IMG/VR virus record: IMGVR_UViG_3300045988_123611
Strand: one strand, 5' to 3'
DNA from: a virus
Length of the DNA stretch: 64,000 nucleotides
Shown: piece by piece, positions 11,641-14,008 of the stretch
Numbering within the stretch: the first letter of the stretch is position 1
Layout of the letters: the number at the start of each line of letters is the position of its first letter
Program-made: the position numbers and the translations under genes
Notes under the pieces: model-generated
Seen by the model: the letters and a program-made list of their open reading frames with translations, nothing else
What the model was told of the DNA's origin: nothing
Databases searched by the model: none

Positions 11641-11688
11641 AAAAAATAAAGGCGAAAGTGTAATACTTTCGCCTTTATTTTAATTCAA
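11641..11688 (-). terminator. rho-independent terminator after rSAM operon
   Basis: Stem AAAGGCGAAAG/CTTTCGCCTTT flanked by A/T runs. Confidence 0.5.
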
Positions 11689-12972
11689 TAATTCATCTAT
11701 CCACTCTTGTTTCATATTATTCGGAAATTCTTCGTCTATATTATGTTTTTTATAATATTTATTCCAAAATTCAATGTTGGCAAGAGCGCGAGCTTTATGC
11801 ATAGGACAAATATAAGTAACTCTTTTATTAAGAATTCCAGTATCTTGATAATTATATGCTTGACACCAAGCGCAACCAGTAGCGATAGGACATTCACGAC
11901 ATTCATCAGAAGATTGAGTATAAGAATTAATTGCTTTTAATTCTTTTGTTAATTGTTTTTGTTTTTCTGTTGTTGCTATTTCATTTTTATTTACATTTCC
12001 TATAATAAGAGGTGGGACGGAATCGCCCAGAGCATCTTCCATATATCGTAAGCAGGGGTATAAATTACCAGTATAATTCATAGCAATCATACTTCCATTT
12101 CCGCCACACCAATTCTATAGATCATCTTTATTAGTCCAATCTTTTGGTCTAAATAATTTCAAATCTGGATATTCAAAAAATGAAATATATACATCTTCTT
12201 CTAAATTATTATCAAGGAGATATTGTCCTAATTCTTGTAATTGTTTATAGTAAATTTTGGCGTGTTCTAAAGTCCAACCTTTTTCAAAAATCACATTCCC
12301 TAATATAGAAGTAAATCCTATGTCTAAAAGAGCTTTTACGGCATCATTTAAATACATAACATTATCAGGAGATAAAGTAATTTTTGAACAAGGATATTCT
12401 CCGGTTTTTTTACGCCAATCTTTTATTGCTTTTACAACAATATCATAACTACCTGACCCATCAGGGAATTTTCTACAAGCATCATGCAATTCTTTATTAC
12501 CATCAATACTAATAGAAACAGATAGCCATTGCTTATATTTATCTAAAAATTTTTGTACTTTTGGATCAAAATATAATGTTCCATTAGTACAAATTAAAAA
12601 TCTTGTAAAATAAATTAATGGACTGTTCATTTCAATTAATTTAGAAATTGTATAATCCATTACTTTATCTATTAAATCTAAATTTAAAAAAGGTTCTCCA
12701 CCAATAAAATCAAAGACTAAACCTATAATATTATCTGGGTCAAAGTAATCATTTTTCTAAGGATTTACTATTAACATATCAATATATTTTTTAGCTGTTT
12801 CAAAATCCATTAAATGATTTTTTTTACAAGTTTGATAACAATAACTACATCTTAAATTACAAGCGTCAGTGACCTGTAAAGTTATATCAAAAACTTTATC
12901 GCTTTCATTTTTCCATAGTTCTGGATATAATCTTTGAATTGTATCACTATACTATTCGAATTTACGTCTCAT
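11680..12972 (-). CDS. Radical SAM enzyme with C-terminal SPASM domain (peptide/protein maturase; anSME-like)
   Basis: CxxxCxxC motif (TDACNLRCSYCYQ), GGEP motif, C-terminal Cys cluster CRECPIATGCAWCQ. Three in-frame TAG join ORFs 12115..12660 and 11680..12090 with an N-terminal segment from ATG ~12972. Confidence 0.65.
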
Positions 12973-13277
12973 TCAGCATTATCATTAATTGTTATTGTAA
13001 TAATTTTTGCTTGGAAGTCAATACTCCAATAGGCATTATTACCATATTTTTCTAAATCATAATATTTTCCAACTTTATTTCTAATTTTATCATATTCAAT
13101 AAATTTTTCAACGTATTCTTGATGATATCTTTTATAATTATCAGTATCCATATTATTAAATGAAGTGCTATTCATCATATAAGTAATAATACTTTGACGA
13201 GCAAGAAGATCTTGATAAGCTCGTTCTAATTTATCATTTAATTCTACATTATTAGCATTTACTGTAATTGTTTTCAT
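12969..13277 (-). CDS. hypothetical small protein (possible partner/RRE-like of the rSAM system)
   Basis: 102 aa, RBS AAAAGGAG, sits between the Cys-rich gene and the rSAM gene. Confidence 0.35.
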   Translation of the reverse strand: MKTITVNANNVELNDKLERAYQDLLARQSIITYMMNSTSFNNMDTDNYKRYHQEYVEKFIEYDKIRNKVGKYYDLEKYGNNAYWSIDFQAKIITITINDNAE

Positions 13278-13301
13278 TATTTTTCTCCTTTTTATCTTAT
13301 A

Positions 13302-14008
13302 AATTAACTTTTTAAAATTTTAGAATATAAAGACTTTAAAGCAGTAATTGCTTTCTGCATTTCAGATTTAGTACAGACATTTCCATTATAAGAAGTGTTC
13401 TACATTTTAGAAATATTTGTGAATATTTCATTTTTTAAGTTTGTATTAACTTTACTGTTAGAAGAAACTTTTGTAGGTAAAGTACTATATCCACGTCTAG
13501 ATAATTCTTTATTTAACATAGTATAAATATTTGCAATATCAGCAGCATATAAAACGATTCTTAAATTAATAGAATTATAAAGATTTACATTAGCTGAAGT
13601 GGTACATCCATTATCGCAGCCTCCCGTACAATTGCCAGTACAAGCAGAACAGTCATGCCTACAACTAGCACTGCATCCAACACATCCGCCAGAACAGCTT
13701 CCACTACAATCGGTGCGACAACTAGCACTGCATCCAACACATCCGCCAGAACAGCTTCCACTACAATCGGTACTGCAAGAACTGCCACATCCAGAGCAAC
13801 CTCCATCACATCCGCCTGAACAACTATTACTACAAACTCCTCCGCATCCGGAGCAACTTCCATCACAGTCTCCTCTACAACTTCCTTGGCATTGGCTAGT
13901 GCCGCAAGTTTCACACATAGAACAATTACCGCCACAACCATGGTCACATCCATTACTACAGCTTACAAAGCAAGTTCCGACACAACCCTATGTAGTACAA
14001 TTAGCCAT
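13302..14008 (-). CDS. Cysteine-rich repeat protein (candidate rSAM substrate)
   Basis: Strong RBS AAGGAGG. MANCTT-TAG-GCVGTCFVSCSNGCDHGCGG...; tandem repeats CSGSCSGGCVGCSASCR(T/H)DCSG; Cys-free C-terminal tail. Two in-frame TAG; ends TAA ~13302. Confidence 0.55.

Follow-up and report, generated by a model that had tools for sequence, protein, structure and literature searches.

A radical SAM/SPASM enzyme beside a cysteine-array protein in a TAG-recoded phage: a proposed protein-crosslinking cassette

The subject of this analysis is a minus-strand cassette of a large gut phage, in a 64,000-nt stretch of the IMG/VR virus record IMGVR_UViG_3300045988_123611 (hereafter the window), in which a cysteine-rich protein (the target), a 102-amino-acid (aa) protein (the partner) and a radical S-adenosylmethionine (SAM) enzyme of the SPASM type are encoded in succession. 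The favoured interpretation, held with moderate confidence, is that the enzyme crosslinks the cysteine array of the target, probably by thioethers, and that the target is a late, possibly virion-associated phage protein. The parts of this interpretation differ in strength. That the two proteins are enzyme and substrate is highly probable, thioether chemistry (by analogy with the relatives PapB and CteB) is narrowly favoured, the roles assigned below to the partner and to the conserved domain of the target are evenly balanced, and association of the product with the virion is conceivable but rather doubtful. An earlier note on this DNA had described a radical SAM/SPASM maturase beside a cysteine-rich substrate, which was borne out by a score above the TIGR04115 cutoff and by synteny in ~130/152 related loci.

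Enzyme, target and partner

The family of the enzyme was established against NCBIfam, in which it scored 405.5 bits with TIGR04115, the curated family of radical SAM peptide maturases with CXXX-repeat targets (cutoff 350, E 2.6e-121), residues 30-402 being aligned to positions 4-359 of the 359 in the profile. The next-best model was PapB (NF047865; 192.2 bits, cutoff 340, E 1e-56). The SCIFF maturase model (TIGR03974) gave 134.7 bits (cutoff 425), QhpD 105 bits (cutoff 453) and anSME (TIGR03942) 78 bits (cutoff 349), and further matches were to CcpM, Nif11-type and other peptide maturases. The SCIFF/ranthipeptide type suggested in the earlier note was not upheld, the SCIFF and PapB cutoffs both being missed widely. 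An anSME function was rejected on its score and on the lack of a sulfatase-type C/S-x-P-x-R motif in the target. The best 25 of the 65 matching families were all peptide or protein maturases; a housekeeping radical SAM enzyme or activase, set beforehand as the refuting outcome, was absent from these 25. More than 7,000 relatives were found at E<1e-20, and those of ~50% identity included Clostridia proteins named after TIGR04115 by NCBI. Judged by its sequence, the enzyme is a bona fide TIGR04115 member.

Pfam Radical_SAM and Fer4_12 scored above cutoff and Pfam SPASM just below it (20.8, cutoff 21.5), so the SPASM assignment was taken from the invariant cysteines. In an alignment with 23 homologs, C38, C42 and C45 (CxxxCxxC) were invariant, as were the SPASM-pattern cysteines C289, C307, C358, C361, C367, C370 and C389, spaced as C289-x17-C307 (with G302-x4-C307), C358-x2-C361-x5-C367-x2-C370 and C389. 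By this pattern the enzyme is predicted to hold one SAM-cleaving [4Fe-4S] cluster and to supply seven cysteines for two auxiliary clusters. The sole PDB relative found by sequence was CteB (5WGG, E 7e-22). Because the alignment begins only at CteB residue 97 (enzyme residue 28), the phage enzyme is without a fused N-terminal peptide-recognition (RRE) domain.

The target carries its 35 cysteines in an array that precedes a Cys-poor domain of ~100 aa (Table 1). Spacing within the array was 95% CX3C or CX2C (74% CX3C, 21% CX2C, 6% CX4C), following a (CX3)4(CX2) pattern with a 19-aa period. Against a Cys background of 1.8% in the other proteins of the window, this content has a binomial P of ~4e-30, and no second open reading frame (ORF) of the window came near it. 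The Cys-rich (T/H)D repeats described in the earlier note were recovered as a perfect tandem duplication of 57 bp, which codes for the 19-aa unit CSGSCSGGCVGCSASCR(T/H)D; its "Cys-free tail" is Cys-poor, with one cysteine at residue 212, and so is not strictly Cys-free. Every cysteine column was retained in seven close relatives (30/30 to 35/35), as were 33/35 in L015, the most divergent one, and identity at non-Cys array positions fell to 56-67% in the two most divergent relatives (L015 and L003; lowest 56%, L015). The Cys-poor domain was 87-100% identical among eight close phage relatives, and length differences between close relatives were exactly +/-19 aa. Since the cysteine columns are kept while the residues between them drift, selection acts on the cysteines and on the Cys-poor domain and not on the intervening residues.

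Family-wide, the arrays follow the same rule: 98% of 2,522 Cys-Cys intervals were CX3C (70%) or CX2C (28%), the intervening residues being S, T or G. Canonical targets begin with a conserved ~110-aa N-domain (47/65 non-redundant targets; consensus '..LK.KVK.EM.RR...YDF..P..G...AEHG.K.I.PLL....SSCRGACTGLC'), followed by an array that can reach 96 Cys in 379 aa. The target of this phage has the minority order (array, then 'CDNGC', then the ~100-aa domain), which was also found in L048, L131, L141, L146 and L153. A plain search with the N-domain profile gave 6-10 bits over one helix of the target tail, and a comparison of hidden Markov models (HMM-HMM) with more array-first sequences was needed. 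With hhalign, eight array-first C-terminal domains matched the 47 canonical N-domains (probability 96.6%, E 6e-10, 77 columns), on which grounds the Cys-poor tail is identified as the conserved domain of the family, moved to the other side of the array.

Profile matches of the target itself were weak. It scored 14.9 bits with TIGR04114 (cutoff 20), gave no match to TIGR04117 and matched phrog_6085, a phage family of unknown function, weakly; its Cys-poor domain belonged to no family in Pfam or PHROG. An AlphaFold2 (AF2) model of a target fragment (13403-13987) had a mean predicted local distance difference test (pLDDT) score of 40.8 and was unusable, with the array at ~38. The unmodified array is thus predicted to be disordered, which would fit a substrate threaded through the enzyme and is silent on the product.

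Word-seeded homolog searches for the Cys-poor tail and for the partner returned close relatives only. With phmmer, the partner matched the partner of an Anaerosporobacter locus at 45.5 bits and gave many further matches. All three parts of the cassette have homologs in related loci. Against TIGR04116 it scored 13 bits (cutoff 50, E 0.084, profile positions 10-89 of 90). Because 0/53 partners of this clade matched TIGR04116 at 1e-3, that model is evidently narrow, too narrow to decide membership. An exhaustive profile search gathered 116 clusters of partner homologs, almost all stand-alone proteins of 90-120 aa and none fused to a radical SAM enzyme. About ten (P0149, P0162, P0163, P0192, P0209, P0212, P0221, P0226, P0237 and P0239) were tandem duplications of ~190-220 aa with two matched stretches, which suggests that the partner acts as a dimer.

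The partner had been described as possibly RRE-like. The RRE is a winged helix, in which three helices come after a sheet of three strands. In the AF2 model of the partner (pLDDT 89) the order is instead beta-alpha-alpha-beta-beta, that is, a strand, a hairpin of two long helices and two strands. Foldseek found nothing in the PDB at E<0.001 and no PqqD/RRE structure among the 50 best-ranked matches, of which the best (E 0.9) was an alpha-hairpin of membrane-fusion proteins. In BFVD, three unnamed gut-phage proteins of ~90 aa were matched with template-modelling (TM) scores of 0.66-0.81. On the modelled fold, therefore, the partner is not RRE-like.

The three genes lie in a four-gene minus-strand unit that opens with a gene for a 153-aa protein. 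The stop codon of the partner gene overlaps the enzyme start (ATGA). A promoter-like site and two terminator-like hairpins delimit the unit (Table 1), and the four genes look like one transcription unit by these signals. The operon elements listed in the earlier note were all found where it had placed them to within a few bases, including the terminator after the enzyme gene; the upstream gene exists as it had stated, as an ORF at 14023-14484 rather than 14034..14486. The 153-aa protein had 0 matches in Pfam, NCBIfam or PHROG, and its gene is kept with the cassette in close phage relatives. Its candidacy as a fourth conserved component was not established, phmmer having found it in its own phage clade only. 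Similar-sized proteins occupy its position in the array-first loci L131 and L141, with homology not established (hhalign 8% probability).

Table 1. Positions of the cassette genes, their internal features, flanking signals and the CTA tRNA in the window
Feature	Position (nt)	Strand	Details
Terminator-like hairpin, intrinsic type	11643-11681	minus	17 pairs + T-run; directly after the enzyme stop codon
Radical SAM/SPASM maturase	11680-12972	minus	430 aa; TAG at codons 7, 71, 286
Partner protein	12969-13277	minus	102 aa; 0 in-frame TAG
CXXX-repeat target	13304-14008	minus	234 aa; TAG at codons 7 and 203
Cys-poor domain of target (residues 136-234)	13307-13603	minus	HMM-HMM homology to canonical N-domain
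Cys array of target (residues 1-135)	13604-14008	minus	35 Cys
Tandem duplication within target gene	13661-13771	minus	perfect, 57 bp, 1.9 copies
Upstream gene, helical-looking product	14023-14484	minus	153 aa; 2 in-frame TAG; first of unit
Promoter-like site, TTGCAA-17-TATAAT with TG extension	14501-14530	minus	consensus match only
Second terminator-like hairpin	14670-14704	minus	precedes the 153-aa gene
tRNA, anticodon CTA	57237-57326	minus	ARAGORN label 'Pyl'; among 15 tRNA genes

Related cassettes and their phage setting

Related loci were sampled as 80 of the 381 matching IMG/VR loci together with 77 loci from species-representative genomes, the latter mostly from Oscillospiraceae, Lachnospiraceae and other Clostridia. 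By mechanical scan, a Cys-rich ORF lay upstream of the enzyme gene in 131/152 loci and a ~100-aa ORF abutted it in 136/152; the order target, ~100-aa partner, enzyme was found in ~130/152. Targets in relatives ranged from 114 to 570 aa with up to 96 Cys. At E<=0.01 they matched TIGR04114 in 11/61 cases and TIGR04117 in 13/61; phrog_6085 was matched by 37/61.

The relatives lie mostly between the tail-fibre/baseplate genes and the lysis genes of Clostridia phages and prophages. The Caproicibacterium chromosome (CP135996.1) encodes the enzyme twice, each copy inside a prophage. There, Baseplate_J, Mu_Gp48, a protein with a tail-collar-fibre N-terminus and a 140-aa fibre-motif protein precede the target, and the partner, the enzyme, a 105-aa protein, a GH25 lysin and holins follow it. 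In 61 non-redundant loci, the nearest two ORFs upstream and the nearest two downstream of the cassette were surveyed with Pfam; most neighbours other than those given here had no match. Upstream neighbours were Phage_tail_fib (8), Phage_Mu_Gp48 (7), Tail_P2_I (5) and Mtd_N (3), with two each of Baseplate_J, Sipho_Gp37, BppU_N and Collagen; downstream neighbours were Amidase_3 (4), Amidase_2 (3), GH25 (3), holins (5), Collagen (3) and Peptidase_G2 (1). In prophages the cassette is co-oriented with the late genes.

One clade of ~60-kb gut phages (L045 and its relatives, 33 loci) joins the array to further sequence. The enzyme (3-mer sharing 0.96) and the N-domain of the target (0.93) are almost the same in all phages of this clade, and the array runs, after a conserved junction AFGAVV.GG.VEDPTVDLIANG, into a C-terminal domain. 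Of this domain there are at least three alleles, including two that are unrelated; sharing has a median of 0.36 and is <0.2 in 27% of pairs. At the junction DNA (e.g. L045:6030-7631) a poly-G tract of 4-9 G sets the C-terminal domain in or out of frame, which could reflect phase variation, programmed slippage or assembly error; other loci of the clade have a TGA at the junction or are without the C-terminal domain. Neither the conserved N-domain nor the L045 C-terminal domains matched anything in PHROGs or Pfam. The combination of a conserved anchor with a length-variable repeat and exchangeable distal domains is the pattern seen in receptor-binding fibres; the likeness is contextual and is not proof.

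Three variants of the cassette surroundings were also observed. A ~105-aa protein is often the first ORF after the enzyme in prophage loci (L005:7326-7643; 'MAEIKYVKFADATVIEATQV...', 'MFKIKLIDGTIFNATSVEENF...'); neither Pfam nor PHROG has a family for it, and the cassette of this window is without it. At L002:2222-5217 (MT837480.1), a distant version with 36% identity has a target that starts with a twin-arginine-translocation (TAT)-like signal (MNNKIQSRREFFKNAAKSVLP...), and a second radical SAM-like protein and a 90-aa protein lie downstream of the enzyme; this may be the type behind the TIGR04114 and TIGR04116 models. At the TAG-recoded locus L007:3888-6004, an additional radical SAM protein, smaller at 312 aa, is encoded together with two Cys-rich proteins, one of 114 aa and one of 188 aa that has a short array at its C-terminus, these extra genes sitting between a 740-aa fibre-like protein and the partner plus TIGR04115-type enzyme.

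Proposed crosslinking and its alternatives

In the proposed mechanism, the conserved domain of the target would serve as a docking handle in the manner of the leader of a peptide that is made by the ribosome and modified post-translationally (RiPP), although placed here as a follower. The partner, probably as a dimer, would help to present the disordered array and would stand in for the recognition domain missing from the enzyme. The enzyme would then abstract hydrogen atoms and join cysteine sulfurs to nearby carbons as thioether crosslinks, so that a floppy Cys/Gly/Ser-rich stretch would become a covalently stapled, protease-resistant segment. Disulfides would be unnecessary, which would suit assembly inside strict anaerobes. 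Given the tail-fibre/lysis position of the relatives and the swappable C-terminal domains of the L045 clade, the likeliest product would be a late protein that is associated with the virion and is fibre- or adhesin-like, and not a diffusible peptide; the need for TAG suppression in 3/4 genes of the unit was also counted for a late or structural context.

Several results weigh against this interpretation. For PapB the acceptor has to be an Asp or Glu that lies C-terminal to the cysteine (PMC12373016). The array here has one Asp per 19-aa unit of five cysteines, and Asp makes up ~3% of inter-Cys residues family-wide. Acidic residues being so scarce, PapB-type chemistry cannot explain most of the cysteines; thioethers, if formed, would mostly use other acceptors, for instance carbons of the backbone or of side chains in Ser, Thr, Gly or the next Cys, or a subset of the cysteines would react. 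The partner and the target score below the curated TIGR04116 and TIGR04114 cutoffs, and in the literature neither an experiment on any TIGR04115 member nor a paper describing the family was found. As to the virion, no annotated or cultured phage with the cassette was found among deposited phage genomes; the target domains have no structural annotation in PHROG or Pfam; the cassette lies ~33 kb from the tail-fibre-like genes of the window (47256-52540); and the target of this phage has no extra distal or receptor-binding-like domain. Cargo genes (morons) also classically occupy the slot that separates tail fibre from lysis genes, and the context fits a non-structural role as well.

Such a role is the most serious alternative, unlikely but of appreciable weight: the same pairing and crosslinking would yield a non-structural effector, for example a moron product, a large toxin or bacteriocin of RiPP-like kind that lysis sets free, or a factor in host takeover. 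The layout of a leader- or follower-like domain with a hypervariable core is RiPP-like, the junction at which the relatives lie is established as a cargo slot, and the cassette of this window has its own promoter-like site and terminators and sits among auxiliary genes (Band_7, PhoH, lysin), not tail genes; the large recoded phages L166 and L007 likewise carry it away from recognisable tail genes. Against an effector, neither the cassette nor its near neighbours include a protease, an ABC/C39 exporter or an immunity gene, and the size and cysteine content of the targets are far above those of known RiPP cores. The fusion of L045 arrays to swappable C-terminal domains is like that of receptor-binding proteins, and co-orientation with late genes in prophages also counts against an effector.

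It is distinctly improbable that no thioethers are formed, in which case the array would be a metallothionein-like binder of metal or Fe-S clusters, or the enzyme would carry out another radical SAM reaction (formylglycine formation as by anSME, the addition of methyl groups or some other modification derived from Cys). The strict CX2C/CX3C spacing, with its small intervening residues, is also reminiscent of metal-thiolate motifs. PapB-type chemistry would need more acceptor Asp and Glu than there are, the models for anSME and QhpD are significant, though low-scoring, and no chemistry was found in the literature for the TIGR04115 family. However, the best-scoring characterised relatives (PapB, SCIFF/CteB and CcpM) have Cys-rich peptides as substrates, and thioether formation has been shown for PapB and CteB; the low score and missing motif given above weigh against anSME chemistry; and metal binding alone would leave the obligate pairing of the array with an enzyme and a partner (~130 loci) unexplained. 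NrdG-type activases are often phage-borne, and a housekeeping or nucleotide enzyme, such as an anaerobic ribonucleotide-reductase activase with an unrelated Cys-rich neighbour, was the remaining alternative. Nothing observed in this analysis spoke for it, and it was refuted by the family score above the TIGR04115 cutoff and the maturase character of the best 25 families, by the full set of invariant SPASM cysteines and by the conserved synteny with Cys-rich targets; the operon has no nrdD-like partner, and the probability left to this explanation is negligible.

Among known systems, the nearest is the CXXX-repeat system of TIGR04114-04117, in which TIGR04115 is the maturase, TIGR04116 the associated protein (CXXX repeat peptide modification system protein) and TIGR04114 and TIGR04117 the Cys-rich, Cys-Xaa-Xaa-Xaa repeat targets. 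It is already catalogued, as an in-silico prediction only, and is less of a novelty than the earlier note implied. The cassette shares with it an enzyme above the TIGR04115 cutoff, the gene order and CX3C/CX2C arrays, and differs in a target and partner below the model cutoffs, in a domain placed after the array and in carriage on a ~190-kb TAG-recoded phage. Beyond the catalogue, the domain-swapped target, the partner with a defined non-RRE fold, and carriage by a ~190-kb TAG-recoded phage and by several other recoded lineages are new; so is the finding that the clade is largely a system of phages and prophages, placed where tail-fibre genes meet lysis genes, whose substrates are the size of proteins and in one clade have distal domains that are swappable. 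Literature searches over 8 million papers found nothing on CXXX-repeat radical SAM systems or on phage radical SAM/SPASM maturases with Cys-rich substrates.

The enzyme is also akin to characterised radical SAM/SPASM maturases. PapB, which acts on PapA (freyrasin, a ranthipeptide of Paenibacillus polymyxa) and was the second-best model, installs several thioethers in a repeat-containing Cys substrate, tolerates variation in the residues that separate donor from acceptor and docks the leader on an RRE (PMC12373016); it differs from the phage system, which has scarce acidic residues, no N-terminal domain, a non-RRE partner and a 234-aa substrate. CteB of Clostridium thermocellum (5WGG) is a thioether-forming maturase of a Cys-rich peptide (SCIFF) of Clostridia, but has ~96 extra N-terminal residues, the peptide-recognition domain missing in the phage enzyme, and SCIFF precursors are ~45 aa with six Cys, as against proteins of 35-96 Cys here. 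QhpD crosslinks cysteines to other residues within a protein subunit and not within a released peptide, and with QhpC (maturation of quinohemoprotein amine dehydrogenase) it is the nearest precedent for a protein substrate; its score, however, is far under the model cutoff and its substrate is unrelated and without a repeat array. For the target, an analogy may be drawn with phage fibres that have collagen-like Gly-X-Y shafts and assembly chaperones: position following the baseplate and fibre genes and preceding the lysis genes, a repeat of low complexity whose copy number varies, helper genes immediately downstream of the gene for the repeat protein and C-terminal domains that are swappable in one clade. 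This analogy is drawn from context only; there is no sequence or structure similarity or sign of trimerisation, and the cassette of this window is outside the tail module.

Small antimicrobial or signalling peptides are the products for which radical SAM/SPASM maturases are known. The substrates here are whole proteins with 35-96 cysteines, and the carriers are largely phages and prophages of gut Clostridia, in which the cassette usually sits beside tail-fibre genes. If the stapling is real, it would be a route to disulfide-free, covalently reinforced extracellular proteins in viruses of strict anaerobes, would give a biological role to an experimentally untouched TIGRFAM family and would offer a new enzyme-plus-scaffold pair for heavily crosslinked, protease-resistant proteins. 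A wider proposal, tentative and rather unlikely, is that CXXX-repeat proteins in general are virion components (fibre shafts or adhesins) stapled by a dedicated radical SAM enzyme in the reducing cytoplasm of anaerobes. Were this so, the system would be an enzymatic substitute for disulfides and the first radical-SAM crosslinking of a virus structural protein; TIGR04115 would mark a phage-fibre maturation system with variable array copy number and, in some phages, swappable receptor-binding tips switched by a poly-G tract.

TAG recoding and neighbouring features of the window

The cassette had been described as TAG-recoded and phage-borne, and both points were confirmed by window-wide in-frame TAG codons, a tRNA with anticodon CTA and matches to viral contigs in IMG/VR. 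Under the standard code the enzyme gene is broken into pieces; read through in its frame, the gene forms a single ORF of 430 codons that contains three TAG. Many long minus-strand ORFs across the window contain 1-8 in-frame TAG and end in TAA or TGA, and TAG suppression is required by three of the four genes of the unit (enzyme 3, target 2, upstream gene 2). At TAG codons 7 and 286 of the enzyme, homologs have mostly Gln in the aligned column ('EQY', 'QNWCGG'). As two of the three TAG sites in this gene thus align to Gln columns of bacterial homologs, TAG is most likely read as Gln.

The CTA tRNA is 90 nt long, with a long variable arm that has its own short stem (..CCCTT TG AAGGAG..), a start at U1 and an apparent U1-U72 mismatch. 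A Gln-type tRNA would not usually show these features, even though Gln is what homologs have at the TAG sites. Close by, at 56574-56663, is a tRNA-Tyr that is likewise 90 nt long.

Other TAG-recoded phage lineages with the cassette were L007/L008, L032, L124, L134, L154, L159 and L166. L124, L134, L154 and L159 are short contigs whose enzyme gene has 1-13 in-frame TAG, drawn from metagenome-assembled genomes (MAGs) carrying the labels Methanobrevibacter, Clostridium, Erysipelotrichaceae and Mollicutes; they resemble recoded phage contigs mis-binned into host MAGs, or may be clues to prophages or hosts.

Spurious long ORFs in the wrong frame lie over the array in the window (13585-13953, minus; 13599-14069, plus). 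In Caproicibacterium CP135996.1 (L005:4988-5695; L006) the public gene call likewise runs in the wrong frame across the CXXX-repeat gene, giving a 193-aa product ('MVVMVALGLAMVV...') that continues into the partner gene. Standard-code gene callers thus break cassette genes at recoded TAG codons or mis-frame them across the Cys-codon repeats, and the CXXX-repeat system is therefore probably under-annotated.

The window is AT-rich (~30% GC), with nearly all genes on the minus strand. Its proteins include tail-fibre-like proteins, an RNA ligase and other phage proteins, and with the enzyme as query, viral contigs of 111-196 kb in IMG/VR matched at 95-99%. The cassette is flanked on one side by an SPFH/Band_7 gene and on the other by a 160-aa gene, PhoH and a lysin. 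The SPFH/Band_7 gene (14708-16093, minus), immediately upstream of the cassette, encodes a flotillin-like membrane protein with a long Ala/Glu/Lys-rich coiled region, and its position beside the cassette is conserved in close phage relatives. Further away, an RNA ligase (phrog_968, 218 bits; 22957-24333, minus) and a 508-aa 'RNA-binding protein' (phrog_850, 452 bits; 33709-35235, minus) occur amid many tRNA genes, which suggests an RNA repair or RNA-handling module. Two minus-strand ORFs (17459-17980 and 37871-38488) contain an HNH-endonuclease-like motif, 'C..(L)(L/V)CANCH.EIH', and are possibly homing endonucleases; that at 37871-38488 adjoins tRNA genes.

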